A DNA stretch of 58,241 nt. Source: Deltaproteobacteria bacterium. GTDB taxonomy: Bacteria; Desulfobacterota; Dissulfuribacteria; Dissulfuribacterales; QOAL01. Position numbers and translations under genes: made by a program. The stretch spans positions 1 through 58,241 of the forward strand of contig JALXCD010000086.1 in NCBI GenBank assembly GCA_026991135.1. Direction: 5' to 3'. Shown in pieces: positions 5,236-48,378 of the stretch (positions are counted from its first letter, which is position 1; each line of letters opens with the position of its first letter). The notes beneath the pieces were generated by a model, which saw only the letters and a program-made list of their open reading frames with translations, was not told where the DNA came from and did not search any database.

Positions 5236-6379
5236 TTTTTTTATTGTAAATATCTTCAATCCCCCAGACCCTTGCCTGAAATAATGCATTTTCTGCTATC
5301 TTTTCATGGTCAGCCGATGGAATGGAAATTTCTGAAAGGCACTTGGGGCAGTTGATCTTATTAAGCCATAGGCCAAAGGATTTTGCGGTTTCCTTGGCTG
5401 CCATTTTGTCATCAAGCCCCTTTTCTATGCCAAAACACCTTTTCCCAAGTTGCGCGATCTTTTGAGGTTCGTCTTTTTCTTCTGCCTTCCAGTTCATCCA
5501 CCCTGGAAGAAGGGCTGCAAGGCCCTGTCCATGGGGAATGTTGTAAATAGCACTTAAAGAATGCTCAATGAGATGGACAGGAAAGGGGTGATCCCCAACC
5601 CCTGCACGGGTAAGACCGTTAAGGGCAAGGGTTGCGGCCCACATAAGGCTTGCCCTGCTGTCATAATCTTTGGGGTTTTTCATGGATGATTCAGTGGTTT
5701 CCATGATAACCCTTATAAGGCCCTCTGCTATCTCATCCTGGACAGGGGTCTTGGGATAGGGGCCGTTAAAATATGGTTCAAGAAGGTGACATATTGCATC
5801 AACTCCTCCAAAGGCCGTGTAATTTTCAGGAACAGAAAAGGTGAGTTCAGGGTTCAGGAAGGATACCTTTGGGAAAAGGTGTGGAGAGCCTGCCGCAAGC
5901 TTAAGCCCCTTTTCCATGTTGGTTATAACCATAAAGCCATTCATCTCAGAGCCAGAGGCAGCAAGGGTTGGAATGCAAAAAACAGGAAGGGCCTCCTTTA
6001 TCTCCTTTTTGCCTTCAAAGACCTCCCAGACATCCCCGTTAAGCTTAACCCCGCAAGAAATGGCCTTTGCCGTATCCATAGAGCTTCCGCCACCAAGGGC
6101 AAGAAGCATCTCAATTCGGTTTTTTCTGACAATCTCTATTCCTTCTTGAACCTTGTCAAGAAGGGGGTTTGACTGGACTCCTTCAAGGGTCCAGAAATTT
6201 ATTCCTCCCTCCTTAAGAACCTTAACTACCCTGTCATAGGCCCCAGAGCCCCTGGCGCTTTTTTGCCCAATAACCAGAAGGCAGCTTTTGCCATATTCTC
6301 TAAGCTCTATTGCTATCTTGTTCAGGGCATCTTTTCCAAATATGATCTTTGTAGGATTGTGAAATTCAAAATTTTTCAT
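5204..6379 (-). CDS. Iron-containing (group III) alcohol dehydrogenase, YqhD/butanol dehydrogenase-like
   Basis: 391 aa. GGGSSMDTAKAI dinucleotide/Fe-ADH signature and conserved His cluster (DAICHLLE, HLIEHSLS, PHGQGLA). The 3' end overlaps the convergent tatC by 32 nt. Confidence 0.9.
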   Translation of the reverse strand: MKNFEFHNPTKIIFGKDALNKIAIELREYGKSCLLVIGQKSARGSGAYDRVVKVLKEGGINFWTLEGVQSNPLLDKVQEGIEIVRKNRIEMLLALGGGSSMDTAKAISCGVKLNGDVWEVFEGKKEIKEALPVFCIPTLAASGSEMNGFMVITNMEKGLKLAAGSPHLFPKVSFLNPELTFSVPENYTAFGGVDAICHLLEPYFNGPYPKTPVQDEIAEGLIRVIMETTESSMKNPKDYDSRASLMWAATLALNGLTRAGVGDHPFPVHLIEHSLSAIYNIPHGQGLAALLPGWMNWKAEEKDEPQKIAQLGKRCFGIEKGLDDKMAAKETAKSFGLWLNKINCPKCLSEISIPSADHEKIAENALFQARVWGIEDIYNKKTILKILSFCQ

Positions 6380-6431
6380 GTCCTACTCCTTTTTAGGCTC
6401 CTTCTTTTGATGGCCGAATGAAGGAAAGAAA

Positions 6432-7100
6432 TTATAGCCCTATCTCCTTTAAAAACCTTTCCATTCCAATCTTTTTGATTACCCTGTCAAGCCTTGATTT
6501 TATCTTAACGTTTTCAGTAAAAAGGGCTGCTATCTTTGAAAGAAGCTCTATTCCTTCCTCATAGGTCTTTATAATTGCAATATTTTGGCCTGGGACAGGT
6601 TTTGAGCCACCATGTCCGCCAACAAAAACCTGAAATCCCCTTTTAATTCCCACAAAGCCTACATCTAATACATTTGCCCATGAACAACAGGCAGGACAGC
6701 CAGCTATTCCAACCTTTAGCTTTTTTGCAATTGGTTGACGTCCTATCTTCTGGATTATGGCGTCTGAAAATGGAAAGGTCTCCTGAAGGGCAAACTTACA
6801 ATAGGGCCTTCCTACACATACCCTTGGTTGAGAGATGTCCCTTGCTGTTTTTGCATAAAGGTTAGTTTTGGATAATTTTTCAAGGGCTCTTTGGCCTGTC
6901 TCTTTTGTTAGGTTAAGAAGCATGAATTTTTGTGCTGTAGTTATGTGAACTTTACAGTCAAGCTCTTCCGAAACTTCTGAAAGTGCCTTAAGGTCACTGG
7001 CGCTAGGGCAGGCTCCATTGGGAACTTCGATATATATTGCATAGGAGCCATCTTTTTGTGGAACGAGGCCCGGTATAATCTCTTTTTTATTTTTGCCCAT
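6432..7100 (-). CDS. Small nitrite/sulfite reductase-like protein (ferredoxin-like half domain plus 4Fe-4S/siroheme-binding domain)
   Basis: 222 aa. Cys spacing CVGRPYC (C-x5-C) and later GCPACC (C-x3-C) fits the C-x5-C-xn-C-x3-C cluster/siroheme coupling motif of NiR/SiR proteins. It lies upstream of, and on the same strand as, the Fe-ADH gene with a 52-nt gap. Confidence 0.72.
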   Translation of the reverse strand: MGKNKKEIIPGLVPQKDGSYAIYIEVPNGACPSASDLKALSEVSEELDCKVHITTAQKFMLLNLTKETGQRALEKLSKTNLYAKTARDISQPRVCVGRPYCKFALQETFPFSDAIIQKIGRQPIAKKLKVGIAGCPACCSWANVLDVGFVGIKRGFQVFVGGHGGSKPVPGQNIAIIKTYEEGIELLSKIAALFTENVKIKSRLDRVIKKIGMERFLKEIGL

Positions 7101-7302: not shown

Positions 7303-8202
7303 ATGCCAAAGAAAATTCTTGCCCTTTTAATAACAGTTGCCTTTTTACAGGGCTGTTCACTTATCCCAAGAAACCAAATCAGGCCAGTGGCCAAGGGTGA
7401 ACGCTGGAGAGTAAGGCTCATCAAATATGAAAATGGCTCTGATTTTGTTAAAAAGGGAGGATTTGAGCACCCTTATGATTTTTCCCTACTTAAACTCAAT
7501 AGAATCCTTGGCGCTATCTATTACAGGAATTCAGAGCTTTTTGGAAGTGGTAAAAAGACAAGGCTTTTTAATAAAAGGGTCAGGGCAACCCTTCTAAAAC
7601 CGTTAAAACAGGCCTTTTCTATGGCAAGACCTGATGAGGTGGTTGATTTTTCCTTCATGCTCTCGGAGAGGAAATTGGTCTTTTTTAATCATGACCTTTT
7701 TACTAGTGGAATCATGTTCGTGAAGGATGGCAAACTGAATGTAGTAATGAGAGTTGTGGATTTTCAGGTGGAAAATTTTGCCGATGCCTTGAGGCAGTTT
7801 GCCGGTGATCCTACAGGGCGTGCGTTAAGAAATCCCTGGGAATTTGTTGTTGGGCCTGGTCAAAGGCTTAAACCTTCTAAAAAATCAGGCCTTGGGATAT
7901 TTCAGGAGTCAGTATATCCAAATTGGCTCATAATTGACCTTGATTATGAGTTTGGTCCTGCACCTTTAAAGGCCCGCAAAAAGTTCAATGTCCCCCAGGT
8001 CCTTACTCCAGGCTCTGCTCCCCCAAAGGTGAAATTTGAACCTGTAAAACCAGGTGAAGGGGCGGTAAAGACAAAGACCTATACCCCAGTTGATGATCCG
8101 GAAGTGAGGAAAAAACTCCAGGTCCTAAGAGACCTTTATAACAGTGGGGCTATTAGCAGAAAGACCTATGAGAGAAAGAAGGAGGAGCTTTTATCCCGCT
8201 AA
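7303..8202 (+). CDS. Lipoprotein of unknown function with C-terminal SHOCT-like motif
   Basis: ORF 7237-8202 trimmed to the ATG at 7303, preceded by GAGGGA. Signal peptide MPKKILALLITVAFLQGC has a lipobox (LQGC). The C-terminus LQVLRDLYNSGAISRKTYERKKEELL resembles a SHOCT domain. Confidence 0.7.
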   Translation: MPKKILALLITVAFLQGCSLIPRNQIRPVAKGERWRVRLIKYENGSDFVKKGGFEHPYDFSLLKLNRILGAIYYRNSELFGSGKKTRLFNKRVRATLLKPLKQAFSMARPDEVVDFSFMLSERKLVFFNHDLFTSGIMFVKDGKLNVVMRVVDFQVENFADALRQFAGDPTGRALRNPWEFVVGPGQRLKPSKKSGLGIFQESVYPNWLIIDLDYEFGPAPLKARKKFNVPQVLTPGSAPPKVKFEPVKPGEGAVKTKTYTPVDDPEVRKKLQVLRDLYNSGAISRKTYERKKEELLSR

Positions 8203-8723
8203 AGGGCATTTTGCCTTAAAAGATCCTTTATGAACTTTTCATAAATAAAGGTGCTATCAGGGGTAAAGGGCTCTTTTTTCATAAGTTTTTCAAGCCCTTT
8301 TAGGGAAAGAAATCTAAAATCCTCAACTTCGGTCTCCTGGGGCCTAATTGCACCTGAAAACCTGCATGAAAAAAGCCTTCCAAAGACCCTGTTCTTTTCA
8401 TCTTCAAAGAAAAATTCAGCATGCATTTTAAGTTCCGGGCAATCTATGCCGGTCTCCTCCTTAAGTTCCCTTTTTGCATTTTCCAAATAGGTCTCCCCCT
8501 TTGCCACAACACCACCAGCAGCTATCTCCCACATCCCCGGGTAGATGTCCTTTTTTAGGGTTCTTTTTTGACACAAAATCCGTTTCTTACCGTCAATTAC
8601 CACAATATAGGTTGCCCTGTGAATCAGCCTTTTTTGGCGCATCTCTTTTCTGGTGGCAACGCCAATTTCATTGTTCTTTTCATCAACAATTATTACGGGT
8701 TCGTCTTGATCCAGTGGTTTCAC
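8199..8723 (-). CDS. Nudix hydrolase
   Basis: 174 aa with a GTG start preceded by GGGGAG. Complete Nudix box GVVAKGETYLENAKRELKEETGI (G-x5-E-x7-REUxEExGU). Confidence 0.87.
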   Translation of the reverse strand: MKPLDQDEPVIIVDEKNNEIGVATRKEMRQKRLIHRATYIVVIDGKKRILCQKRTLKKDIYPGMWEIAAGGVVAKGETYLENAKRELKEETGIDCPELKMHAEFFFEDEKNRVFGRLFSCRFSGAIRPQETEVEDFRFLSLKGLEKLMKKEPFTPDSTFIYEKFIKDLLRQNAL

Positions 8724-13173: not shown

Positions 13174-13973
13174 AGAAGTTGAAGGAGCTTGATAAAAGTG
13201 GGATCAAGGACAAGTTATTTGAAAAAAAGGTGTCTAAAAATGACATAGCTCAAGAAGAACTTCTGCACTTCTGGGATGATGAAGGTCAAAGATTGACCGC
13301 AAGGATTTTTTCAAAAGAGCCTTCCAATCCCCATGTCCTTTATTTTCCTGCTGAGTATGAGAGTGAAGAGACCTTAAAAAGGCTTGCCGACGGGTTTGCT
13401 TCAATAAATTTCACCTTTATTGCCTTTGAATATCCTGAATTCGGTCTTAGCCAGGGCGAGTTTTCCTTTTTGACCATCTTCGATAAGGCAAGTCTTTTTT
13501 TTGATTCCGTAAAGGAGTGGATGAAAGAGACCAAAAGAAATGGTGGGCTTGTCATTATGGGACGCTCCATTGGTTCTGCCATTGCGATTAATGAGGCCTT
13601 AAAGCGTGAAAAGGAACTACTGTGTCTTGTTATAGAGAGCGGTTTTTCGTCTGGAAGGCAATTTTTTGAGAGATCTGGCATTCAATCGAATTTGTTACCA
13701 GAGGAGCCCATTTTCGCAAACAGGAAAAAGATGGCCCAATTTAAAAAGCCTGTCCTTTTCATTCATAGCTCGAGAGACGAGATACAAAGTCTTCCTGAGG
13801 TGGAATGGCTAGTGGCAGAAAGCCGTTCAAAGGCCACGCAATTTCAGATTGCCCCAAGTGGTACAAGGAGAGAACTGGCCAAGGCTGTAGGAGGTATCTA
13901 TTTTGAGATACTTGAGCAATACATAAACTTACGAAGGGGAGTGAGGCCCTCTAGAAAGAGGAAAAGGGGTTAA
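13161..13973 (+). CDS. Alpha/beta-hydrolase-fold protein, apparently degenerate (nucleophile elbow present, no catalytic His found)
   Basis: 270 aa. GRSIG nucleophile elbow and acid candidate IHSSRDE. No histidine anywhere C-terminal of that Asp. Basic tail PSRKRKRG. Confidence 0.68.
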   Translation: MVEIEKLKELDKSGIKDKLFEKKVSKNDIAQEELLHFWDDEGQRLTARIFSKEPSNPHVLYFPAEYESEETLKRLADGFASINFTFIAFEYPEFGLSQGEFSFLTIFDKASLFFDSVKEWMKETKRNGGLVIMGRSIGSAIAINEALKREKELLCLVIESGFSSGRQFFERSGIQSNLLPEEPIFANRKKMAQFKKPVLFIHSSRDEIQSLPEVEWLVAESRSKATQFQIAPSGTRRELAKAVGGIYFEILEQYINLRRGVRPSRKRKRG

Positions 13974-14983
13974 CTCCACACCCCTTCAATTGTTTCTCCA
14001 CATTTCGGACACCTTCCATTATCCATTCGGTTTTCCAATATTGTAAAGCCATATCTTTTAATGAGCAGTTCATTACAAGCAGGGCAGTAGGTATTTTCTC
14101 CTCCTTCTCCTGGTACGTTTCCTTCATAGACGAATCTCAGACCCTCTTCGTAGCCAATTTCTCTTGCACGGCGTAATATGCTAACCGGTGTAGGTGGACG
14201 ATCTAACATTTTATAGGTTGGATGAAAGGCTGTAACATGCCAAGGGATGGATGATGAGACTGATTTTATGAATTTAGCAATTTCTCTAAGTTCTGCCTCT
14301 GAATCATTCCAGCCAGGAATTATCAGGGTGGTAACTTCAACCCATATGCCCAACTCGTGCATTAGTTTTATAGAGTCTAACACTGGCTGAAGTCGTGCCT
14401 TGCATACCTCCTTGTAAAACTTGTCTGTAAATGCCTTAAGATCAATGTTGATGCCATCGAGAAAATCCGTGCTGTGCCTGCATGTCTCCTCTGTCATATA
14501 TCCATTACTTACAAATACATTTTTTAGGCCCTCTGTCCTTGCGATTTTCCCTGTATCATAGGCAAATTCATAAAAGATGGTCGGTTCCACATAGGTGTAG
14601 CTTATACTTCTTACACCTGAAAGAAGGGCATCCTTGACAACCTGTTCAGGTGTAGCTTCATCTCCTGCAATCTGGCCATTATTTAAACGAGGATACTGAC
14701 TTATGTACCAGTTCTGACAATGTTTGCACTGGAAGTTACAGCCCACCGTGGAAATGGAAAAGGAACTCGTTCCTGGCAAAAAATGAAATAGGGGTTTTTT
14801 TTCTATAGGGTCATTGTTTTGTGAAATGAGCCTTCCATAGACAAGGCTATAAAGAGTGCCATTACGGTTTTCTCTTACCTGGCAAATCCCCCTTTTACCA
14901 CTTGATATTGTGCATCTGTGTCCACAAAGGTTACATTTTACTTTTCCCTCTGGCCTTTTTTCAAAGAGATATGCCTCCTTCAT
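13970..14983 (-). CDS. amrS: AmmeMemoRadiSam-system-type radical SAM enzyme (AmrS-like)
   Basis: CNFQCKHC (C-x3-C-x2-C) radical SAM cluster motif. N-terminal Cys-rich knuckle KCNLCGHRC...GICQVR and C-terminal zinc ribbon CPACN...CPKCG. The ORF track starts at 15001, but the ATG at 14983 is preceded by GGAGGA, so it is preferred. Confidence 0.82.
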   Translation of the reverse strand: MKEAYLFEKRPEGKVKCNLCGHRCTISSGKRGICQVRENRNGTLYSLVYGRLISQNNDPIEKKPLFHFLPGTSSFSISTVGCNFQCKHCQNWYISQYPRLNNGQIAGDEATPEQVVKDALLSGVRSISYTYVEPTIFYEFAYDTGKIARTEGLKNVFVSNGYMTEETCRHSTDFLDGINIDLKAFTDKFYKEVCKARLQPVLDSIKLMHELGIWVEVTTLIIPGWNDSEAELREIAKFIKSVSSSIPWHVTAFHPTYKMLDRPPTPVSILRRAREIGYEEGLRFVYEGNVPGEGGENTYCPACNELLIKRYGFTILENRMDNGRCPKCGETIEGVWS

Positions 14984-15138
14984 GGTTGATTTTCCTCCCA
15001 TTATTCTAAATCCAAGCTTTTTTGAAATATAAGCACTAATTTTAAAAAGTCTCTTTAATTTTTTTTAAAAGTGGTCGATAAAGATTATGAGCAATATAAA
15101 AAAATAGTGTCTGATGGGACTTCCCTGAGGAGAATTCC

Positions 15139-15606
15139 ATGAAGGAAATTTTATTAGAAAGAGGTGGAAATATTGTTTCAAATGATAAAAATGTGGCATT
15201 AATTGCTAAAAGTCTGGGATCAACCCTTGCAGTTATAGTAACAGATACAGAAAATTCGATATCAGGTATATGTCAATGCATTTTGCCAAAGTCCGTCAGG
15301 CGGGATTCCAGCCTGAAAGATGTTCTTGAGCAGCTACGACTTCTCTTTAAGCAAATGATTAAGCTTGGGTCAAAGACACAAAATATTAGAATTATGCTTT
15401 GTGGTTCTGCTACTTATCTGGAAGAGCCCCCGGATACGGCTCTTGGTGTAATGCTTTATAAAAGGGTTTTGGCAGTCTTAAAGCAAAGTGATATGAAGAT
15501 TTCAGGAGAACATGTGGGAGGGCCAATAAATAGATCAGTTTCAATAAGGGTTGGTGATGAAAAGGCCAAGGTATTATTACCTGACAATAAGGAGATATTG
15601 ATATGA
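15139..15606 (+). CDS. CheD-like protein lacking the deamidase catalytic residues (probable pseudoenzyme)
   Basis: 155 aa, collinear with remembered CheD sequences. SLGSTLAVIVTD matches GLGSCVAVCMRD, GICQCILP matches AMAHVMLP, CGSATYL matches AGGASMF, and GGPINRSVS matches GGNRARSVE. The Cys and His positions read Thr and Gln. RBS GAGGAG. Confidence 0.72.
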   Translation: MKEILLERGGNIVSNDKNVALIAKSLGSTLAVIVTDTENSISGICQCILPKSVRRDSSLKDVLEQLRLLFKQMIKLGSKTQNIRIMLCGSATYLEEPPDTALGVMLYKRVLAVLKQSDMKISGEHVGGPINRSVSIRVGDEKAKVLLPDNKEILI

Positions 15607-16475
15607 ATTTGGCTATCAGTCCCGATTTTACCCTAGATGCAGTTTTTGAATCTATGGCTTCATTGCCAGTATTCCCAAAGATAGTACATGAGGCCCTGAA
15701 AGTTTTAGATGATCCTAAGAAAAAAATCAGCGATGTTAGCGAAATAATAAAATATGATCAAGGAATTGTTGGAAATATTTTGAAACTTACAAATTCTGCA
15801 CTTTTTGGTCTCACCCAGCAGGTTTCTGACCTTGATACAGCCCTTGCCCTATTGGGTCAGCAAAGAATTAGAGAAGTCCTGATAACAAGTGCAGCACTTC
15901 CTTATCTTTCTCGTACCTTAAGTGGTTATGAGATGTCTCCTCAGGATCTTTGGCTGCATTCCATTGGTTGTGCAATAATTTCTGAGGCCGTTAGTGAAAA
16001 GATCGCCCCTAACTTAAGTTCTGAACTTTATACGGCTGCAATTCTTCATGATATTGGAAAGATAGTTTTAGATATTTACCTGGGGCCTCGTCTTATTGAG
16101 GTCTTAGAACATGCTAGAATAAAAGAACATGATTTTTCCATGGCAGAATGGGAAATAATAGGGACTGATCACGCAATTGCTGGCTCTACTATTTTAAAAA
16201 ATTGGGATTTTCCTCCGGATATTTATAGGGCTGTCCGTAACCATCATGATCCAGACCTTTATATTCAAGATAAATTATCTACCATGCTAGCGCTATCAAA
16301 TTTGATAGCTGTTCAATTAGGGCTTGGTGTTGGTGCAGATGGTTTTAGATATCGAATCAATCCTGAAATTCTAAAAAAATTGGAGTTATCTACTGAGAAT
16401 TATCTTGAGCTAATAGATGAGGCTGTAAAAAAGATAGATGCGGTCCAAGATGTATTTAAGTTGATTTTAGAATAG
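15603..16475 (+). CDS. Stand-alone HDOD-domain protein
   Basis: 290 aa. HDOD hallmarks LPVFPKIVHEALKVLDDP, ILKLTNSALFG, AAILHDIGKIVL and GTDHAIAGSTILKNWDFP. The ATG overlaps the CheD-like stop (ATATGA). Confidence 0.85.
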   Translation: MNLAISPDFTLDAVFESMASLPVFPKIVHEALKVLDDPKKKISDVSEIIKYDQGIVGNILKLTNSALFGLTQQVSDLDTALALLGQQRIREVLITSAALPYLSRTLSGYEMSPQDLWLHSIGCAIISEAVSEKIAPNLSSELYTAAILHDIGKIVLDIYLGPRLIEVLEHARIKEHDFSMAEWEIIGTDHAIAGSTILKNWDFPPDIYRAVRNHHDPDLYIQDKLSTMLALSNLIAVQLGLGVGADGFRYRINPEILKKLELSTENYLELIDEAVKKIDAVQDVFKLILE

Positions 16476-17183
16476 CTAAAGATCCTTTAAAGGACAGATT
16501 TCGCATTTAGGTTTTCCTTTTTTACAGAAATCTTTACCAAGTCTTACAAAAAGTGCATGGAATTCGTTGAATAGACACGCATCTTCTGGAAGGTTAGACA
16601 TAAATATGTCTCTTAATTCATGATAATCTATATTGTCGTCGATAAGGTTGTGCCTCAACAAAATCCTGAAGGTATAGGCATCTATTACAAAGGAAGGCTT
16701 ACCTAGGGCATACAGTATGATGCTATCGGCTGTCTCAGGCCCTACTCCTTTAATTTTTAAAAGTTCTCTTCTCAGTTTTTCATGATCCATTTCTTCCATT
16801 TTGGAAATGGAACCATCAAATCGTCCAATCAGAAAATTCAAGAAATTTTTTAGTCTCTTGGCCTTTAGGTTGTAATATCCAGTAGGCCGAATTAGGGAAG
16901 CAAGTATTTCATTATCTAGCTTGAAAAGTTTATGGGGCGATAATAATTTTCTTTCTTTTAAATTGTTGATAGCCTTTTCTACATTGGTCCAGGCCGTATT
17001 TTGAGTAAGAATTGCACCAATTGCTATTTCAAAGGGGGTTTCACCAGGCCACCAGTACTGGCTTCCATAGGAATCATAGAGCTTCCAGAAGATATCAAAT
17101 AATTTCTCGGTTGTTTTATTACCTTTAAAATTGAGTGTTAGATTCCTGAGATGATCTTTTCTACACGGTGGTTGCCGCTTCAA
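16476..17183 (-). CDS. Endonuclease III-related HhH-GPD family protein
   Basis: 235 aa. Helix-hairpin-helix LLKIKGVGPETADSIILYAL, Asp in VIDAYTFR, and C-terminal FCKKGKPKCEICPLKDL (C-x6-C-x2-C). The stop abuts the stop of the convergent HDOD gene. Confidence 0.8.
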   Translation of the reverse strand: MKRQPPCRKDHLRNLTLNFKGNKTTEKLFDIFWKLYDSYGSQYWWPGETPFEIAIGAILTQNTAWTNVEKAINNLKERKLLSPHKLFKLDNEILASLIRPTGYYNLKAKRLKNFLNFLIGRFDGSISKMEEMDHEKLRRELLKIKGVGPETADSIILYALGKPSFVIDAYTFRILLRHNLIDDNIDYHELRDIFMSNLPEDACLFNEFHALFVRLGKDFCKKGKPKCEICPLKDL

Positions 17184-18291
17184 TTAGTTTTTCCGTTTCT
17201 TTCAAATCTTGATAAAGCTCGTTGGTCAGGAGATTATTAATATCCCAATTTTTGTCAAGCCCAAGATACCTTATTGCCATGGGATGTATATCAAGTGTGC
17301 AAGGTGTCATGTCATAATATCCGCTAAGATTTGCAAGCATATCACTAAGAGATACCAAAATGGTAGGCACACGTGCATGTTGTGGGATGTCTTCCCAGTT
17401 GGAAAAGGACGGATGATGATGATAGGATATGGTGGTACATAGTATTTCAGGAAGGCCCCAATACGTAGTAATTAAATAGGCCAGGCGGCAATGGTCAATT
17501 CCATAAAAACTGTCTTCTCCTATAACAGAAGGATTTTTACAAGGGGAATCATCTTTGATTTCCACATCCTTGTTCCCAAGACCTCTTAGAAGAAATTTTC
17601 CGACATCGTGAAGGAGTGAGCACGTATAGACTGTTGGAGCAATATCACTTGTATTCATGTCAAGTTGTATAAGGAGGTGTTTAGCACATGTAGCCGCTGC
17701 TGCACCGTGTCTCCAAAGGCGCTTCATTTCTTCATTTGATAATTCTGAAAAATTTTGAACTGCAATTGTAGCTAAGAGCTGGTTTACCAGAAGCCAAAGG
17801 TTGTTAAAACCTAGAATCACCACAGCATGCTGAACTGATGTGATCTTTTTATGCGGCGAATAGGCAGGAGAGTTGACAACTCGTAAAATCTTTGCAGATA
17901 ATATTGGATAAGTGGAGATGATCTTTACTATTTTTTTTATTCTTGCTTCTGGATCCTTAAGTATTTGTGATAGCTGAACTATTCCAGTGGGCAATTCTGG
18001 ATTTTGCCTAATTATGTCTATTAAAGCTGCATCTTCTTTGGTTATAGGTCGTTCTGGGCTATATCTTTCCTTTTCAATAAAGGAAATCATTTCAACTTTA
18101 CGATCTTTTTTAAGGCTGGTAACAGAATCTGTTAGCTGCTGAATGTCTAAATAGGCCTTTGATTCTTCTGTTTTTCTCCTGTTAGATGTCTTGAGATTGC
18201 TTTGTTTGTTGGAGCTACTTTTAAGGAAAAAAATTACGATAAATAAAAAAACTACTAAAAAGCTAAGAATCATGACAATATAGATATTCAT
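17161..18291 (-). CDS. Membrane-anchored HDOD-domain protein
   Basis: 376 aa. N-terminal TM IVMILSFLVVFLFIVIFFL, a linker, then HDOD (ILRVVNSPAY, SLLHDVGKFLL, GIDHCRLAYLITTYWGLP, YHHHP). Confidence 0.85.
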   Translation of the reverse strand: MNIYIVMILSFLVVFLFIVIFFLKSSSNKQSNLKTSNRRKTEESKAYLDIQQLTDSVTSLKKDRKVEMISFIEKERYSPERPITKEDAALIDIIRQNPELPTGIVQLSQILKDPEARIKKIVKIISTYPILSAKILRVVNSPAYSPHKKITSVQHAVVILGFNNLWLLVNQLLATIAVQNFSELSNEEMKRLWRHGAAAATCAKHLLIQLDMNTSDIAPTVYTCSLLHDVGKFLLRGLGNKDVEIKDDSPCKNPSVIGEDSFYGIDHCRLAYLITTYWGLPEILCTTISYHHHPSFSNWEDIPQHARVPTILVSLSDMLANLSGYYDMTPCTLDIHPMAIRYLGLDKNWDINNLLTNELYQDLKETEKLIEAATTV

Positions 18292-20589: not shown

Positions 20590-22461
20590 TTAAGCAATTT
20601 GGACCTGTCGTTCTTCAAGAATAGAATTTACAACAGAAAAAAGCTCTTTCATCTTAAACGGCTTTTTCAGGTATGGAAGCTGATATTTTTTAAAAAAGTT
20701 TATTGTCTCCGAATCTGAGACAAGCCCAGTGGTAAAAATTATCCTGTCCTTATATTGAGGAAATTCCTTTAATAATCGTTCATAAAGTTCAATTCCACTT
20801 AGTTCTGGCATTTTTAGATCTGAGATGATTATATCAACATTTTCTTCTGAAAGCCTTTTTAGTGCTTCAAGACCATTTGATGCTCTTATGGCATCAAAGT
20901 TTTTAGAAAAAATTTCTAGAAGTAGTTGGGAAACCTCGAGTTCATCATCAACTACAAGGACCTTTGGCTTTTTGGCGAAATTTAAGTGAAATACGTTTTG
21001 AGTTTGATTATTAGTGTTTGAGAGTTGTTTCTCTGTGATTTTGGGTACCTTAATTAAAAAGGATGTCTTATGTGGTTCAGATTCCACATGGATGTCTCCA
21101 CCGTGTTCTTTGATGATTCCATGACAAATGCTTAACCCAAGTCCGGTTCCATTTCTTTTTTCCTTTGTGGTAAAAAAAGGATCAAATATCTTTTTTCTGA
21201 TCTCTGGTGGTATTCCTGGGCCATTATCGGTAATTTTTATACTAACATTCTCGGAATTTGAAAGGCTTTCTATTATTATTTGGCCTTTTGATGGGCAAAG
21301 TACGTCTATGGCATTTTTGAGTATATTTGTAATGACTTGTTCTATTTGATGAGGATCAGCCATTATGTATGGATCATTGAGATCAAGCTTTTTAATAATT
21401 TTTATCTTAGTTCCACTTAGGCAGGTTGAGACCAAATTACATGAGTGCTCAATTATTTTATTTACGTTGCATTTAATCTTTGATGGTTTTTCCCTTCTTG
21501 AGAAAAGTAGCAGAGAATTGACAATGCGTTTGGCACCATTTGAAGCATTTTTAATGCTTTCAATGGCACGTTCAAGTTGATCCTTGGGAAGGTCGCTTGA
21601 AAGTAGCTCGGCATAACCTACAATAGGGGTTAGTTTATTATTTAGTTCGTGGGCTATAGAGGCAATCATTTCCCCCAATGTCGCTAAACGTTCTGCCCGA
21701 ATTAGTCGATTCCAAAGGACATCTCTTTCGGTAATATCTCTGCAAATCAGAATAACTCCATTGCTTATATGTTCTCCAAGGGTATTTGCAAGCCTAAGTT
21801 CCACTGGAACGGTATTGCCCTTACAGTCTCTTAAGACAATCTCTTCAACAAAAAAAGCACCGGGATTTTTTGAAAGATTTTGAATCTTACCTTCTAGTTC
21901 TTGCTGATAGGTGAAATCTACAAAATCTAAGACTGGCCGTTTAATAAGTTCCTTGACAGAGCAATTGAGAATGCTTGCCATTTTTTGATTGGCATAGTGA
22001 ATAACACCATCTTTTATTATGAGATAGCCCTCGTTCATGTCCTCAATGAGTGCCCTGTATCGTTCTTTGGCAAGTGCTATCTCATCCATCATGGTTATGT
22101 GTTCTAATGCCCTCTGGAGGGAGTGATAGAGTAAATCAAATTCAAAGGGTTTAATTACATAGTCAAAGGCTCCATGTCTTAAGGCTTCTACTGCATTTTC
22201 TACAGAGGCATGCCCTGTCATTACTATGACTCTTGTTTTTGGGCAGAATTCCCTGCAATATTTCATTATGTCAGTACCGCTTCCGTCTGGAAGATAGAAA
22301 TCCGTAACAACAACATCAAAAAAATTCTCTTTTAACTCCCGAAGTCCTTCTTCCACGCTTTTACTTGTTGTAGTTGTAAATCCCGAGTAGTCGAGAAGCA
22401 TTTTAAGGGTTTCTCTCATCTGCTTCTCGTCATCGATAATAAGTATGGAGCCCAGATTCAT
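20590..22461 (-). CDS. Hybrid histidine kinase: REC-PAS-HisKA-HATPase-REC
   Basis: 623 aa. REC1 (ILIIDDE...VVVTDFYLPDGSG), a PAS region, H-box IAHELNNKLTPI, G-boxes DNGPGI and GTGLGLSI, REC2 (VLVVDDE...IIISDLKMPELSG). The start overlaps the stop of the upstream kinase by 4 nt. Confidence 0.9.
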   Translation of the reverse strand: MNLGSILIIDDEKQMRETLKMLLDYSGFTTTTSKSVEEGLRELKENFFDVVVTDFYLPDGSGTDIMKYCREFCPKTRVIVMTGHASVENAVEALRHGAFDYVIKPFEFDLLYHSLQRALEHITMMDEIALAKERYRALIEDMNEGYLIIKDGVIHYANQKMASILNCSVKELIKRPVLDFVDFTYQQELEGKIQNLSKNPGAFFVEEIVLRDCKGNTVPVELRLANTLGEHISNGVILICRDITERDVLWNRLIRAERLATLGEMIASIAHELNNKLTPIVGYAELLSSDLPKDQLERAIESIKNASNGAKRIVNSLLLFSRREKPSKIKCNVNKIIEHSCNLVSTCLSGTKIKIIKKLDLNDPYIMADPHQIEQVITNILKNAIDVLCPSKGQIIIESLSNSENVSIKITDNGPGIPPEIRKKIFDPFFTTKEKRNGTGLGLSICHGIIKEHGGDIHVESEPHKTSFLIKVPKITEKQLSNTNNQTQNVFHLNFAKKPKVLVVDDELEVSQLLLEIFSKNFDAIRASNGLEALKRLSEENVDIIISDLKMPELSGIELYERLLKEFPQYKDRIIFTTGLVSDSETINFFKKYQLPYLKKPFKMKELFSVVNSILEERQVQIA

Positions 22462-24998
22462 TGCCCCTCCCTCCCTTTGCCATTTAAGGCATCTTTTGAT
22501 ACAGGCAATTTGATTTCAAAAACTGCTCCAAAACCTGACCGTTCAATTAGTTTAATATCTCCCCCGCATGCCTTTATTAGTCCAAAGCATACAGAAAGCC
22601 CGAGGCCAGAGCCTTTTTCCTTTGTTGTTAAAAAGGGTGAAAAGAGTCGTTCTCTTATGTTTGGATCAATTCCAGGACCTGTGTCTGCAACCGTTAAAGT
22701 AATAAATCCATCCTCTTTTTTTGATACCTCTATTCTTATTGTGCCGTTTTCTCCTATTGCCTCTTGCCCATTTTTGATAAGATTGATGAGTACCTGTTTC
22801 AATTCGTCCGGGTTGATAGAAACAGTGGGGAGATTATCTTCTATCTGGACTTCGAGGTTAATATTCCTTTCATTTAGAGGCTCTTTATAAAGAATAGAAA
22901 TTTCATCAATTACCTTTTTTATGTCAGTTGAAAAATTTTGAGCTTTTTGTTCATTCTTAGAAAAGTCACTAAGCTTTTTAATGATTCGGGCAACTCTATC
23001 TATTTCGGAATTTATTGCATCTATTGTTCCTTCTTCTATCTTTCCAGTCTCTTTTTGTATCTTTAATATCTTTAATAGATTTTTGATTATTCCAAGGGGG
23101 TTGTTCACTTCATGAACAACCTTTCTTGCAACGTCACTGGCTGCCCCTAATCTTTCTATCTGTATTAGGCGTTCTTGAGCCTTTTTTAGCTCCCTTGTCT
23201 TTTTTTCAAGCTCACTTTTTAGCCATAAAGCCCTTTGTTCTCTTTCAATATCTAAAAGAACGCTGTCAGTTACATCCTTTAGAAATATTAGGCCTCTCTT
23301 TTTTCCAAAAAGTTCTATAAAACTTAGTTTTATTTCGATCCATTTTCGGTGTGTGCCTGGAGAATTAATCCTAATTGGCCCAATAGTGATTGGTTCTTTT
23401 GATGGAAGCTCAGAGTTAAGGGCTGAGATAATCTGTTCGTTTAAAAGTATCTTTTGATCAATTTCAAATAATTCTTTAAAGTGGGGATTGGCAAAAAGGA
23501 TATTTCCATCTAAATTACATATACATATGCCAACAGGGGAATTTTTTATTATTGCCTCATTAACGATATGTTCCTTTTCCCAAAGTTGTCGGTAAGAAAT
23601 GCCCCTTAAAACATGGGCTACTTGTCTAGAAAATATCCTTAACGTCTCTATTCCATTTTGAATTTTTTTGAATTCTTCCTCCCTTATGCCAATGGCCAGT
23701 GCTCCAATAGGATCGTTTCCGATTAAAAGAGGCAAGACAAGAAATTCTGTATCTAAAAATTGAATTAATTGTTTTTCAATTAACCGTGGTTGGTTTTCCA
23801 AAAAATATTCTTTAGTAAAGATCGGATAGCCCGTTGAAAAGGCCTTTTCCCATATAGAATTGTTCAAGTTAATGATTTTTATTTGGTTGATAATTGAGTC
23901 ATCTTTGGTGCCTCTTGAAACAACCCCTCTTAGAACCCCATTTTTAAAGGAGAATAGTAAAATAGATTTTATGTTTATTAGATTAGAAAGCGATAGAAAT
24001 ATGGCCTCTTGTAATTCATTCCTGTTTCTGACATCTAAAATGCTTTCTAGAGCGCCAATGAGAGATGCATAATCAATTGCTCTATCTTTAAGAACTTCTC
24101 TTGAGTCAGGTTTATCGGCGAGTTTTAGTGATTTTCCCTTTGAATCTTCTATTTTTAATCCGAGGTCATTTGCAAGCCTAGATAGTTCTTGATTTAGTTC
24201 TTTAAAAAGCTCTTCGAGTTCAGTTGCAGTTAATTTTATGCCAAGGTCAATAAATTCTTTTTCAATGTCTTCTTGGTTAAAATTTGTTTGTCCAAAGAGG
24301 TAGTGAGAGGTAATATCTGAAAGATAGGTGATCTTTACAATCGGAGTTGTATCTTCTAACTGAGTTTTAGGCTCGTGATGATAACGTACAGACCAGCAGA
24401 TATTTAATGGAATGTTCCATTCTCTAAGGAGGCTGAAACCCTCATCTGTATGAGTATTTCCGAGATAACGCCTTTCTGAATCAAGTATGGTTTGTCCTGT
24501 TCTTGGATTTTGTACCACCTTGTCAAAATTTTCCGGTCTTTTAATGAGTAGGGCCAATTGACCTATATCATGTAAAAGTCCAGCGAGAAAGGCTTCTTCT
24601 TCTGAAGGTGGTGATTCTGTTAAGAGTGCCAATTTTTTTGAAATTATTCCAGTAGAAAGGCTATGATGCCAGAAATTTTCAATGGAAAACTCATCAGGAA
24701 ATTCAAGTTTTGAAAAACTTTGGCATATAGCAACAGTTACTGCAATATTTCTTAAAGTAGAAATTCCAAGTCTTAGGGCTGCCTGAGAAATGGAATTAAT
24801 TGGTTTACCTCGATTTATAATGGGGGAATTTGCAAGTTTTAATATCTGGGTTGATAATGCAGGGTCAGCTCCAGCTATCTGACCAAGTTCCCTAAGTGTC
24901 TTTTTTTCGTCTTCTGCGGCTTCTAAAAGATTAAATACAACTCCAGGGAGAGAAGGCAAGAGGGGTATAGTAGATGTTTTGGGACAAGTCTTGGTCAT
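22458..24998 (-). CDS. Multidomain sensor histidine kinase: HDOD-GAF-like-PAS-HisKA-HATPase
   Basis: 846 aa. N-terminal HDOD (ILKLANSPIINRG, AGLLHDIGQLALL, YHHEP), central GAF-like and PAS regions, H-box VVHEVNNPLGII, NLIKNGQEA, DTGPGI and GSGLGLSV. Confidence 0.9.
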   Translation of the reverse strand: MTKTCPKTSTIPLLPSLPGVVFNLLEAAEDEKKTLRELGQIAGADPALSTQILKLANSPIINRGKPINSISQAALRLGISTLRNIAVTVAICQSFSKLEFPDEFSIENFWHHSLSTGIISKKLALLTESPPSEEEAFLAGLLHDIGQLALLIKRPENFDKVVQNPRTGQTILDSERRYLGNTHTDEGFSLLREWNIPLNICWSVRYHHEPKTQLEDTTPIVKITYLSDITSHYLFGQTNFNQEDIEKEFIDLGIKLTATELEELFKELNQELSRLANDLGLKIEDSKGKSLKLADKPDSREVLKDRAIDYASLIGALESILDVRNRNELQEAIFLSLSNLINIKSILLFSFKNGVLRGVVSRGTKDDSIINQIKIINLNNSIWEKAFSTGYPIFTKEYFLENQPRLIEKQLIQFLDTEFLVLPLLIGNDPIGALAIGIREEEFKKIQNGIETLRIFSRQVAHVLRGISYRQLWEKEHIVNEAIIKNSPVGICICNLDGNILFANPHFKELFEIDQKILLNEQIISALNSELPSKEPITIGPIRINSPGTHRKWIEIKLSFIELFGKKRGLIFLKDVTDSVLLDIEREQRALWLKSELEKKTRELKKAQERLIQIERLGAASDVARKVVHEVNNPLGIIKNLLKILKIQKETGKIEEGTIDAINSEIDRVARIIKKLSDFSKNEQKAQNFSTDIKKVIDEISILYKEPLNERNINLEVQIEDNLPTVSINPDELKQVLINLIKNGQEAIGENGTIRIEVSKKEDGFITLTVADTGPGIDPNIRERLFSPFLTTKEKGSGLGLSVCFGLIKACGGDIKLIERSGFGAVFEIKLPVSKDALNGKGREGQ

Positions 24999-40836: not shown

Positions 40837-43155
40837 TTATCCTGCCTTTTTTAAAGAGGTAGCTGATTTAGATAGTCCCCTAACAAGATCAAGCAATTCT
40901 GAGATATTTGCCTGAATCTTTTCTTTAAAAAATTCCAGTCTAGTCTTTCTGTCTGCGCCTTTTATGCTTAGTTCTTTAAGCTCTTCAGCATCTTTATGAA
41001 GTTTTACATGAATTTCGCTTATCCTTGACATTACATCAGAAGGAAAGGTTGGATCAGACATATACTTATTTAGCCATCTTCCCATGAAACACTTTCCTGG
41101 ATTAAGTTCAACATCTGGAACTGAGTCATTCATTATGGCTATTCTCAGGTTTTCTAGCCAGGTAAAGTGCGCAAGAAGTGCCCCGGTTAGTGCAGCCTTA
41201 GGCATAGTGTAATTGGATGCAGCCTTTAGGACATCAATTTTACAGTTATAAAGCGAGGATATTTCATTTAATTGAGTGGACAGAGATTCAATAATTCCAA
41301 CAGTCATATCAATTGTATGTGCTATGGCTGAAAAATCAGAAGCCTGATCTGAAAGCTTATGTGCCTGACTTTCAAGTCCTTTTACTTTTTCTGCTCCTTC
41401 AGAAACAGCCTGGTTTATCTCTGAAACCGTTGCAGTCTGCTCTTCTGCTGCACTTGCAATGGTATTTGTAAAATCATTTACTTGAGAAACGGTCTGGGTA
41501 ATTTCCTCTACTGATTCAACAGCATTTTTGGTACCAGACTGGATTACCTGTATCATCTTAGTTATCTCTTCGGTGGCTTCAGCAGTTTGTTTGGCAAGCT
41601 CTTTGACTTCATTGGCCACGACTGCAAAACCCTTTCCTGCCTCTCCGGCCCTTGCTGCTTCAATGGTTGCATTAAGGGCAAGAAGGTTTGTCTGCTCTGC
41701 AATTGAATTTATGACCTGGATGATCCCTCCAATTTTTTCTGAGTTTTTACCTAGTTCTTGGATAACCTCATTTGTATATTGAGCCTTTTCTTGAGCTTCA
41801 TTAGTTGCCCTTGCCGACTCTGCAACATTTTGGGCTATTTCATTAGTGGCCTCAGTCAGTTCTTGTATGGCATTTGCCACATTTTCAAGGGTTGAAGCGG
41901 CATCTGAAGAGGCATTTGCAACCCGTTCTGCCGCAGTATCAATATCATTTGCACCTTCTGTAACAATTTCATTAACTGTTTTTAATTCATTAACAGTGCT
42001 CTTTGCACCAATAGCCTGTTTTTTTAACAGATTAATAAGGTGACCTGTCGTATAGACAATATTATTGGTTCTTCTGCCAAGTTGCCTTATCTCCTTTGCC
42101 CCTTCTGGTTTGAGCCATTTGGTGAAATCTCCGTGGGTGACATCGGCAAATATTTCCAGTATTCTTTCAAAAGGTTTTTTAATGTTTATTCTAAGTCCAA
42201 TATAGGCAAAGATAATTGCCAATATGCAGGCAATTATTGCTATTATGGCGTGCTCCATCAATTGCTTATTTATCTGTGCATTAAGTCCGGTCAAATCTAA
42301 ATACTGGACATAAACACCGGTTGGTCTGTTTTTATAATCATTAAGTTTTAAGCCAATGGCAAGAAAGTTATCGAGATTTTTAAATGCATGACCTTCTCTT
42401 AAGGCTTTTTCCAAGAAATCTTCATTAATTGCATTTTCAAGTCCAGCAGGTGTTGGAGTAAGAATAGTAAATTTTCCAATTCGATTTCTTTCAAGCCCGG
42501 CTGTAGCCTTTACAGTTTGGAGGCCAAAAAGCTGAATCTTTCCGTTTATATCGTTTTGTGCAATTTTTGCCACTTCAGAAAGGCTAGTTATTGCCTCTAC
42601 ACTTGCAATTGGTCTTGTGTGACCTTCAACAAATATTGGAGCAACTCCCCTGATAGCTATACCAACTCTGCCAGCTTCAATTCCTTTTACAGGCATTCCA
42701 TTTGTCAAGACATCTACTACGGTCCTTCTAAATCCTGATATATCATCGCCAAATTTTTTTGGCTTCCAGACCCTTAAAAAGGATTTTCCTGGAGGAACAT
42801 GAAAGTGTATCTTGAGTCTAAATCTATTTTTGGAGTTGATGGATTTAACCATTGGTTCCACAATCTCGTAAAGCTTTTCTCTATCGCCATTTTGGATTAC
42901 CTCTTTTACCCTTGGCATATCTGCAAAAAGGGAGGCAACTACTAGATTTTGAGAGGCGATTATATCAATCTCTTCAAGAAGATTTTCTGCATTTTTTAAG
43001 GCGGACATTTTAATCTCTTTTATCTGTTCATTGGCAGATATCTTGACCTGAACCATTTGGAGACCAACTAAAAAGATAATGATGATGCTTACTCCAATAA
43101 GTATCCTTGTTAAAAGGGATGTCTTTGAATAGAGATTGAGAATGCCTTTAAACAT
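40837..43155 (-). CDS. Methyl-accepting chemotaxis protein with periplasmic Cache-type sensor, HAMP, MCP signalling domain and C-terminal CZB (chemoreceptor zinc-binding) domain
   Basis: The ATG at 43155 sits 7 nt after AAGGAG (ORF track starts at GTG 43161). Cache_3/Cache_2-like motif [30 protein letters not shown]. Hairpin tip [35 protein letters not shown] pattern HFTW-x22-CFMGRW-x21-HVKLH. Confidence 0.9.
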
Positions 43156-43221
43156 AACCACACTCCTTTAAATTTTGATAATTGTCTTCTTTGTTTTAAA
43201 TCGGAATTATCAGTACTTTTC

Positions 43222-44259
43222 TTAAGTGTCTTTTAGTGTATCTGGTCCAGGTAATGCCCTTTTTGAAATATCTTCACATGGCCAAAGCCTTTTAAGGAGT
43301 TCGATTAATTCAAGGGCCTTTGTAGGACATGGCCCTTTTGGAGTAAGAATGTTTATTCTTAAAAGCATGTCTCCCCTTTTTCCATTTTCATCTATCCATC
43401 CGTGTCCTTTTATTCTAAGAAAGCGTTCCCTTTTAATGCCTGGTGTCAAAAATATTTTTTTGGGGCCATCTATTGTATCAACTTGTATGTATCCACCTCC
43501 TATATGAGTCCAACAATCAATATCTATTGTGGAGATTATATCCTTTCCATGTATTATCCAGTCCTTTGGATTTTGGACTTCTATTTCAAGAAAAAGGGTT
43601 GTCCTTGATTTTTTTTCAGGATCAAAAGGTCCTTCTCCAGGAAATTTTAGGATGGATCCATCTTTTGTGCCTGGTGGGATTGTAACCTTTACTTTTCTTA
43701 TAAGGCTAATGAAGCCTTTTCCTTTGCATTTTGGACAAGTAAGAAGTCTTTCATAGCCCTTTCCACTGCAATATTTGCAAATTATCTTTAATTCTTTATT
43801 GCCCCAAGGAAGTATTCTATATCCTTTCCCAAGGCATTTTTGACAAAGCCCTTGATTTTTTTCTGGGATAGAACCAAGTCCCTGGCATGAAGGGCAAAAG
43901 TTATCGCCTTCATTTATCTCAATTGTAATTTTGGTACCTTTTAGTGCCTTTTCTATTGGTATTTGCACAAAAGAAAAGGCGCCTTCAGGAAAATTAGTTT
44001 TTTTAAAGGACTCTTTATTTGAAAAAAAACTTTTGGAAAGGTTTAGATTATTAGAAGGACCTTTTCTCTTTACTTTTTCTTTTAAAAGGATGTAGGCATC
44101 CTTTATGGCCAAAAAACGTTTGATATTGGCCATATTTTTCCCACAAATATCAGGATGCCATTTTCTAACAAGCCTTCTGTAGGCCTTTTTTATTTCATCA
44201 AGGCTTGCCTCAGGAGTTACTCCCAGAATATCATAGGGATCTTTTTCAAAATATGTCAT
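43222..44259 (-). CDS. DnaJ-like co-chaperone paralogue (J domain, four CxxCxGxG zinc-finger repeats, C-terminal substrate-binding domains, no G/F-rich region)
   Basis: 345 aa. J domain DPYDILGV...KKAYRRLVRKWHPD with the HPD motif. CPSCQGLG, CQKCLGKG, CKYCSGKG and CPKCKGKG. Lies between cheW and mcp on the same strand with 20-nt and 66-nt gaps (the latter to the mcp ATG at 43155). Confidence 0.85.
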   Translation of the reverse strand: MTYFEKDPYDILGVTPEASLDEIKKAYRRLVRKWHPDICGKNMANIKRFLAIKDAYILLKEKVKRKGPSNNLNLSKSFFSNKESFKKTNFPEGAFSFVQIPIEKALKGTKITIEINEGDNFCPSCQGLGSIPEKNQGLCQKCLGKGYRILPWGNKELKIICKYCSGKGYERLLTCPKCKGKGFISLIRKVKVTIPPGTKDGSILKFPGEGPFDPEKKSRTTLFLEIEVQNPKDWIIHGKDIISTIDIDCWTHIGGGYIQVDTIDGPKKIFLTPGIKRERFLRIKGHGWIDENGKRGDMLLRINILTPKGPCPTKALELIELLKRLWPCEDISKRALPGPDTLKDT

Positions 44260-44279
44260 GGACAGGAACTAAGTTTAAG

Positions 44280-44801: not shown

Positions 44802-44813
44802 TATAAAACCTCC

Positions 44814-47516: not shown

Positions 47517-47534
47517 ATGCCATCTCCTTAGTTT

Positions 47535-48350: not shown

Positions 48351-48378
48351 TGTTCTATCTACCTCGCTTTTCTACTGA

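Follow-up and report, generated by a model that had tools for sequence, protein, structure and literature searches.

What does a member of the CheD family of chemotaxis deamidases do once its catalytic residues are gone, and why should its gene be tied to that of an HDOD protein? This question is raised by two overlapping genes on contig JALXCD010000086.1 of a Deltaproteobacteria bacterium (assembly GCA_026991135.1, Dissulfuribacterales), of which positions 1 to 58,241 were analysed as one stretch, referred to below as the window. According to DNA runs and metagenome-assembled genome (MAG) records, the window and the relatives of the pair are of hydrothermal-vent metagenome origin. The reading that we favour, with moderate confidence, is that the CheD-like protein is a pseudo-deamidase that only binds, with a metal-centre HDOD protein as its obligate partner, and that this partnership derives from a chemosensory CheD-HDOD cassette. 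The two genes are read as a bicistronic operon, the products of which most likely act together in a fixed ratio as one heteromeric signalling module.

The arrangement matches exactly what an earlier note on this DNA had described, namely open reading frames (ORFs) of 155 and 290 aa, the stop codon of the first overlapping the start codon of the second. The elements of the pair, with the genes taken from the ORF list, are the following:

15127-15132, forward strand: Shine-Dalgarno sequence of the CheD-like gene, GAGGAG, 6 nt before its ATG (read from the sequence)
15139-15606, forward strand: CheD-like gene, 155 aa
15589-15594, forward strand: Shine-Dalgarno sequence of the HDOD gene, AAGGAG, 8 nt before its ATG and within the 3′ end of the CheD-like gene
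15603-15606, forward strand: ATGA stop/start overlap of 4 nt at the CheD-like/HDOD junction (...ATA TGA / ATG A..)
15603-16475, forward strand: HDOD gene, 290 aa

The homology of the first product to CheD, also proposed in the earlier note, is borne out by sequence as well as by fold. The protein matches PF03975 with 30.9 bits, above the gathering threshold of 25, and is recognized by nine NCBIfam CheD models, the best of which scores 48.2 bits (E 1.4e-12, residues 10-143). All nine scores nevertheless lie far below the equivalog cut-offs of these models (223-369), as illustrated by the best match, which reaches 48.2 bits where 240 are needed (NF041119). Its sole sequence match in the PDB is the CheD protein of Thermotoga maritima (TM0903; 2F9Z chain C; E 1.5e-5 with phmmer), and the AlphaFold2 model of the protein (predicted local distance difference test, pLDDT, 76.6) finds the same chain in Foldseek (TM 0.79, E 7.5e-11), ahead of NTAN1, YfiH and CNF1. 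CheD and these three proteins belong to one Cys-His amidohydrolase superfamily. In the model of a CheD-like-HDOD fusion protein described below, the CheD-like N-terminal domain superposes on T. maritima CheD with a TMt of 0.82 and a root-mean-square deviation of 2.6 Å. The window protein therefore shares the fold of CheD, known from T. maritima and Bacillus subtilis (TM 0.79-0.82 to the T. maritima chain), has the same length of ~155 aa and is collinear with CheD throughout.

What sets it apart is the active site. The LGS[C/T] and xxLP motifs anchor both an ungapped phmmer alignment and a MAFFT alignment, in which the T. maritima triad Thr21/Cys27/His44 corresponds to Ala23/Thr29/Gln46, so that the predicted substitution of all three triad residues proved correct; in addition, Leu106 occupies the position of the canonical GxRN Asn. 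Structural motifs of canonical CheD have been kept, i.e. LGS-x, D36, G89, G103 and GG...R. Sequence comparison thus confirms the 155-aa protein as a true CheD homologue that lacks the catalytic dyad. Two nearby cysteines were considered as replacements for the lost Cys and rejected: C47 is present only in the closest family, with L, V, F or I elsewhere in the clade, and C45 is not conserved even within that close family.

Does this loss reflect a quirk of one sequence or a property of a whole group? A word-indexed search returned 11 close relatives in which Thr29 is invariant while position 46 varies: only the nearest relatives of the window protein have Gln there, P0006-P0010 having His and P0011 Leu. 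When 1.84 billion representatives were searched exhaustively with a profile, 2,326 CheD-family proteins were recovered, of which the top ~25 clusters form a distinct group; in a profile search with the broader clade alignment, this group is separated from the remainder by a score gap from 150 to 108 bits. The degenerate clade is monophyletic in a neighbour-joining (NJ) tree of ~170 CheDs, and none of its 46 taxa combines the Cys with the His. Its members come from hydrothermal-vent Desulfobacterota, including the cultured Dissulfurirhabdus thermomarina and a Dissulfurimicrobium MAG. Comparing 43 clade members with 104 canonical CheDs, the canonical Cys, His and GxRN Asn have all been replaced in the clade:

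Cys site (position 29): canonical C 100%; clade T 69%, plus A, G, S, N and C
His site (position 46): canonical H 100%; clade V 62%, H 13%, Q 9%, also I and L
GxRN Asn site (position 106): canonical N 96%; clade L 72%, V 13%, I 6%
Third triad site (position 23): canonical T 60%; clade A 83%

Other positions have become newly conserved in the clade, namely F/Y93 (99%), P97 (93%), Y107 (88%), N117 (95%), H125 (86%) and N131 (86%). The window protein carries most of this signature, with Y93 (as F/Y), P97, Y107, H125 and N131 in GEHVGGPINRSVS, and has Ser in place of N117; its C-terminal KEILI tail conforms to the clade consensus E-[VI]-x-[IL]. Compared with canonical CheD, the CheD-like gene lies outside the che operon, has a conserved signature of its own and comes with an obligate HDOD neighbour. 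The clade has apparently not been described hitherto, and public records list its members, those from D. thermomarina and the Dissulfurimicrobium MAG included, as ‘chemotaxis protein CheD’ or ‘glutamine deamidase CheD’.

Some individual CheD proteins stand out in their own right. P0025 is a 344-aa tandem CheD-CheD protein in which copy 1 is canonical (GSC...LLHYLLP) and copy 2 degenerate (GSS...MLVFQLP, with Cys replaced by Ser and His by Val), making it an independent case of a dead CheD kept beside a live one. P0087 and P0135 are fusion proteins of ~295 aa in which a CheD with a canonical Cys/His dyad is joined to a receiver (REC) domain. The gene call for P0009 (locus L007, 810-1400) is 196 aa long and includes 41 N-terminal residues without counterpart in any other member, which probably stem from a mis-called start codon.

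Loss of the active site has not been accompanied by decay of the gene. The ratio of nonsynonymous to synonymous substitution rates (dN/dS) is 0.06-0.17 for CheD-like gene pairs with measurable dS, which amounts to five usable estimates as dS is saturated in most pairs, and the CheD-like ORFs are intact at every locus, at a constant length of 152-164 aa across 27-100% identity. Non-conserved catalytic sites together with strong overall constraint argue for a pseudo-enzyme that has been kept for a non-catalytic role; it would no longer deamidate and would be under selection for binding. The earlier note had reached inactivity from the three substitutions in the window. Loss of the dyad stands, but Gln46 is not a clade-wide feature, since sister lineages have His and most of the clade has Val. 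The argument for inactivity is therefore based not on the window sequence alone but on the fact that both dyad positions are non-conserved and the GxRN Asn has been lost.

It is nonetheless worth asking whether the protein might still be an enzyme, for instance with Thr29 as the nucleophile and a base provided by E124/H125 or, in the sister lineages, by His46, catalysing deamidation or other amidohydrolase chemistry, possibly on its HDOD partner. Most clade members have Thr at the Cys site, E124 and H125 are conserved in 95% and 86% of the clade (canonical CheDs have Asp at position 125 in 46% of cases), and the fold superfamily consists of amidohydrolases. On the other hand, orthologous pairs also have Ala, Gly, Asn, Ser or Cys at the nucleophile site, most members have Val, Ile or Leu at the His site, the Asn106 site is hydrophobic, H125 gives way to S, F, M or A in some members, and the equivalog scores fall ~5-fold short of the NCBIfam cut-offs. 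We therefore regard residual catalysis as improbable.

A role in binding would be in line with what is known of canonical CheD. In B. subtilis, CheD binds receptors and boosts CheA, and is titrated by CheC, a helix of which mimics the receptor substrate (PMC3513319); for chemotaxis, this binding outweighs the deamidase activity (PMC3513319). The CheC-contacting residues M101/F102 of B. subtilis CheD correspond to Y93-L94 in the window, i.e. the hydrophobic dipeptide has been kept, with F/Y in 99% of the clade at the first position. Judged from the alignment, this is consistent with a helix-binding groove having been retained in the CheD-like protein.

What, then, would the protein bind? One candidate is encoded next to it. 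Among loci collected from a species-level genome collection, JGI metagenomes and exact-protein look-ups, an HDOD gene lies directly downstream of every CheD-like gene recovered wherever the contig reaches far enough, also where the flanking genes are unrelated. The gene-pair conservation that the earlier note had proposed to survey is thus evident. Nine of the ten stand-alone clade junctions printed show an ATGA or GTGA overlap, the exception being an in-frame fusion (L031). At three loci, the 155-161-aa CheD-like gene and its overlapping HDOD gene stay together in surroundings that differ from the usual ones:

L013: TRAP-transporter genes upstream of the pair
L032: radical-SAM gene kept, RND efflux genes downstream of the pair
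L034: RecG and homoserine dehydrogenase genes upstream, FlhB-like and RNase G genes downstream of the pair

Moreover, the two partners occur as single polypeptides. P0205, a 451-aa fusion of a degenerate CheD with an HDOD domain, is found in the usual synteny, while P0080 is an independent 425-aa fusion of a canonical CheD with an HDOD-like domain from a high-GC organism. The AlphaFold2 model of P0205 (pLDDT 86.3, predicted TM score, pTM, 0.67), built on a shallow, unpaired multiple sequence alignment, has confidently predicted domains and a disordered linker at residues 155-166. At identities of ~32% or less, some HDOD homologues lack a CheD partner gene, as seen in L036 (Krumholzibacteriota), L038 and P0230, and the CheD-HDOD association is accordingly specific to an HDOD subfamily rather than common to all HDOD proteins.

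These data also bear on an alternative explanation, according to which the adjacency is incidental synteny of one lineage and the CheD-like ORF a functionless relic. An extended synteny is indeed common to most loci, so the observations are not all independent. Yet a relic is hard to reconcile with the dN/dS values and the constant-length ORFs, with a pair and a 4-nt overlap that persist after complete replacement of the flanks, with the existence of CheD-HDOD fusions, with the gain of clade-specific conserved residues, and with the canonical CheD-HDOD pairs in three che operons described below. Selection and context data effectively refute this explanation, to which we assign a very small probability.

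In the window, the pair is enclosed by two genes on the opposite strand:

13970-15001, reverse strand: radical-SAM gene, 343 aa, divergent from the pair
16476-17183, reverse strand: HhH-GPD (endonuclease III-like) gene, convergent with the pair

As the upstream gene is divergent and the downstream gene convergent, the transcription unit should comprise exactly the CheD-like and HDOD genes; the stop codon of the HhH-GPD gene at 16476 directly abuts that of the HDOD gene, with zero spacer. A scan of 14.8-16.8 kb for consensus promoters and terminators yielded nothing above shuffled expectation.

The second product is a stand-alone HDOD protein, as had been claimed, with a full-length match to PF08668 (165.5 bits, profile positions 1-196 of 196). 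It also passes the PF01966 HD model (41.3 bits) and the TIGR00277 HDIG model (34.3 bits against a cut-off of 27.6). Its sequence matches in the PDB comprise 3M1T, 3HC1, 9QZK, 3I7A, 3MEM, 1VQR and MmoQ. In the alignment with 3HC1 (E 1.1e-24), H119, H149, D150, H190, H214 and H215 are identical ligand residues, adjoined by D216; in the fusion model, 3HC1 is also the structure that the HDOD domain matches best in fold. The 3HC1 protein, an HDOD from Geobacter, coordinates two iron ions via five His and one Asp (PMC12075610). The six ligands are invariant in 66 of 66 orthologues, which make up an orthogroup of 66 clusters with proteins of ~290 aa and identities down to 41%. On the basis of these residues, the 290-aa protein probably carries an intact binuclear metal centre of the di-iron type. 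The earlier note had treated it as an HDOD-only protein of a domain without established biochemical function; the stand-alone architecture holds, but the protein falls into a metal-centre subclass that passes the HD and HDIG models and has kept all six ligands.

The HDOD protein is also the more conserved of the two partners. At the same loci, its identity to the window protein is 55-76% compared with 35-61% for the CheD-like protein, and its dN is two to three times lower. It may constitute the sensing or effector half of the module. Given that these anaerobic vent bacteria keep a di-iron-type site intact, redox, O2, nitric oxide (NO) or iron status may be what it responds to. A role of the pair in anti-phage defence was also considered; it is unsupported by a PADLOC scan, in which the CheD-like protein had no match and the HDOD protein matched generic Cas3-HD models alone, and weakly so (at most 24.6 bits).

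A clue to the origin of the pair comes from the HDOD proteins that score best outside its own orthogroup. These HDODs, P0228 (161 bits), P0229 (158 bits) and the L014 HDOD (161 bits), each directly follow a canonical CheD with intact Cys and His in a chemosensory operon. The three loci are independent and have the following gene orders:

L014 (Syntrophales MAG): CheW-CheR-CheD-HDOD-CheY-CheX-CheD2-CheB
L037: CheA-CheW-FapA-CheX-CheY-CheR-CheD-HDOD-CheY-CheX-CheB
L040: CheR-CheD-HDOD-CheY-CheX-CheB

These cassettes share with the window pair the order of CheD followed by HDOD in overlapping or abutting frames, and their HDODs, the closest outgroups of the window protein (158-161 bits), keep five to six of the six metal ligands. 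They differ in that their CheD has both Cys and His and sits among core che genes, whereas the window pair is stand-alone and its CheD degenerate. The link between CheD and HDOD on which the earlier note had focused is not confined to dead CheDs. A CheR-CheD-HDOD-CheY-CheX-CheB cassette has apparently not been described before.

The L014 operon has two canonical CheD genes, at 5944-6447 and 8171-8680, one before HDOD and the other before CheB. A further HDOD gene, adjoining that of a sigma-54-type response regulator, lies ~3 kb upstream of this operon (81-962).

In the window itself, a Pfam scan locates a single che operon:

40837-49862, reverse strand: genes for a methyl-accepting chemotaxis protein (MCP), a DnaJ-like protein, CheW, CheA-CheW-REC, CheR, CheB and CheY

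No CheC, CheD, CheX or CheZ was found in this operon, as previously noted, or among the other large window ORFs scanned (at least 110 aa), which likewise contain no other che genes outside the operon. In particular, no partner gene of the CheC/CheX family (PF04509, PF13690) was found in the window, where the partner of the CheD-like gene is HDOD. The che operon is a candidate target of the module.

Further features of this operon are worth recording. Its MCP (40837-43161, reverse strand) combines a dCache_3 sensor with a weak, sub-threshold Pfam match to a C-terminal CZB zinc-binding domain. A DnaJ-type gene (43222-44259, reverse strand) separates the MCP gene from that of CheW and encodes a J domain, a CxxCxGxG zinc finger and a C-terminal domain, an unusual component for a chemosensory cluster. 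CheA (44814-47516, reverse strand) consists of Hpt, dimerisation and ATPase domains, two CheW-like stretches and a C-terminal receiver. The overall architecture is reminiscent of alternative-cellular-function or type IV pilus (Tfp)-type systems rather than of classical flagellar chemotaxis.

The simplest history that would account for these arrangements starts with a CheD-HDOD cassette that arose within a class of che operons, in which CheD was catalytic and HDOD plausibly served as its regulated partner, in a role like that of CheC in Bacillus. In vent Desulfobacterota related to Dissulfurirhabdus, the pair would then have left the che operon and CheD would have become binding-only while keeping its partner. 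In the present-day module, the CheD-like subunit most likely docks on a helical target, which could be a chemoreceptor signalling domain (e.g. that of the window MCP, 40837-43161) or a helix of HDOD itself, and docking would make the output of a chemosensory pathway depend on the state of HDOD with respect to metal, redox or ligand. The earlier proposal of a receptor- or kinase-binding adaptor that recruits HDOD remains plausible and gains support from the ancestry suggested by gene content and order. A bolder version, which we put forward only tentatively, holds that HDOD is a hitherto unrecognised auxiliary chemosensory component, i.e. a dedicated metal- or redox-responsive partner of CheD that, much like CheC, sequesters or releases CheD and thereby feeds an intracellular signal of iron, O2, NO or redox state into receptor and kinase control.

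The metal centre also permits a different view, in which the module has left chemotaxis altogether. HDOD would then be an active HD-type metallo-enzyme, for instance a phosphohydrolase or oxygenase whose substrate is a nucleotide second messenger or some other small molecule, and the dead CheD would be a regulatory, inhibitory or substrate-presenting subunit without chemoreceptor contact. This would fit with the HD and HDIG matches and the complete H..HD..H..HH ligand set in all 66 orthologues, with the slower evolution of HDOD in terms of both identity and dN, with the appearance of PgpH, YqeK and PhnZ-type HD enzymes among the weaker fold matches of the fusion model, and with the fact that the stand-alone pair is never found beside che genes. 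What argues against it is that the nearest HDOD outgroups sit in che operons between CheD and CheY, that enzymatic activity has been demonstrated for no HDOD protein in the searchable literature, and that the known non-catalytic job of CheD is receptor binding (PMC3513319). We regard this view as the one serious rival, although less probable than the binding-only reading.

Several observations weigh against the binding-only module of chemosensory descent and should temper the confidence placed in it. The pair lies ~25 kb from the only che operon of the window and no che genes flank the stand-alone pair at any locus, so its present-day link to chemotaxis is deduced from ancestry. The NJ tree showed no sister relationship between the degenerate clade and the canonical CheDs linked to HDOD; this crude tree neither confirms nor contradicts descent from the cassette, and the argument therefore rests on the HDOD side. 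With regard to the pairing, most loci share the radical-SAM gene upstream as well as the HhH-GPD and membrane-HDOD genes downstream and are not independent, leaving only about three truly independent contexts (L013, L032 and L034). An assembly error of one base within the 4-nt overlap could have produced the P0205 fusion, and the pTM of its model is, by our estimate, roughly what two unpacked domains would give. Thr is fairly well conserved at the Cys site (69%), which makes some residual or altered chemistry at this residue formally conceivable. Finally, a search for RNA-seq runs containing the locus found none.

How does the proposed module compare with known systems? One parallel is the CheC-CheD module of B. 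subtilis and Thermotoga, in which a CheD-family protein likewise has a dedicated partner gene. There, the partner is a phosphatase of the CheC/CheX/FliY family, whereas here the putative partner is an HDOD protein; the cassettes inside che operons (L037 and L040) carry CheX alongside HDOD.

On the HDOD side, the Geobacter sulfurreducens protein 3HC1 is a structural-genomics entry with no known CheD-like partner or function, and metal binding by the window protein is predicted by comparison with it. SadB of Pseudomonas aeruginosa (9QZK) is an HDOD protein that serves as an adaptor between proteins and not as an enzyme (PMC12075610). With a ~150-aa alpha/beta domain (YbaK-like) preceding HDOD, its layout is comparable to that of the pair, and a fold search with the CheD-like-HDOD fusion ranks it near the top. 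In contrast to the window pair, the fold of its N-terminal domain is unrelated to CheD, it is one polypeptide rather than the product of two genes (fusions excepted), and its HDOD pocket has lost most of the His ligands and needs no ligand (PMC12075610), whereas the window HDOD keeps all of them. PSPTO_4229 of Pseudomonas syringae, a stand-alone HDOD protein of 273 aa and hence similar in size to the window HDOD, is dosage-sensitive in that both its deletion and its over-expression reduce swimming (PMC11813219); a CheD-like partner has not been reported for it.

While the CheD and HDOD domains are both known, what appears to be new is their recurrence as a cassette and the existence of a pseudo-CheD clade that this pairing defines. 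No open-access paper naming CheD together with HDOD was found, in line with the earlier note, to which no described CheD/HDOD module was known, nor did the searchable open-access corpus contain a paper on HDOD together with chemosensory systems or CheX. Likewise, none of the searchable papers since 2015 containing the string ‘HDOD’, several of which concern unrelated chemistry, assigns a chemosensory role to this domain. HDOD is a widespread bacterial signalling domain for which the searchable literature holds structures, a few motility or biofilm phenotypes and the adaptor role of SadB, and no general mechanism. A conserved, overlapping and sometimes fused CheD-HDOD pair offers this domain a testable binding partner and a pathway; if the proposed partnership is correct, the orphan HDOD domain would gain its first defined molecular partner.

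For CheD, the dead clade represents a scaffold maintained by selection without its active site. Provided that the binding-only reading is correct, it would amount to a natural separation-of-function experiment in which HDOD-coupled binding, and not deamidation, has been selected. More immediately, a systematic annotation error can be corrected, as clade proteins currently carry the label ‘chemotaxis protein CheD’ or ‘deamidase’. The presence of the pair in the cultured D. thermomarina makes the decisive experiments feasible.

Several features of the neighbourhood remain to be mentioned. The radical-SAM gene lies upstream of the pair at most loci, L031 and L032 included, and is missing from this position in L013 and L034; weak sub-threshold Pfam matches in its product hint at a C-terminal zinc-ribbon-like tail. 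Beyond the HhH-GPD gene, the reverse strand of the window encodes further signalling proteins, the first of them given as context only:

17161-18291, reverse strand: membrane-anchored second HDOD protein, 376 aa, full ligand set
20590-22461, reverse strand: REC-PAS-HK-REC hybrid kinase (HK, histidine kinase), following the HDOD-kinase gene
22458-24998, reverse strand: HDOD-PAS-HisKA-HATPase histidine kinase, 846 aa

The HhH-GPD gene overlaps the upstream membrane-HDOD gene by 23 nt in an order that is kept in close relatives, which suggests that the two form a second HDOD-containing operon, convergent with the pair. The membrane-HDOD gene is syntenic with the pair in close relatives and is not beside it in L032 and L034. 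Together with the partner of the CheD-like protein (15603-16475), the membrane protein (17161-18291, reverse strand) and the kinase (22458-24998, reverse strand) bring the number of HDOD proteins within 10 kb of the window to three, and the full H/HD/H/HH ligand set is present in all of them.

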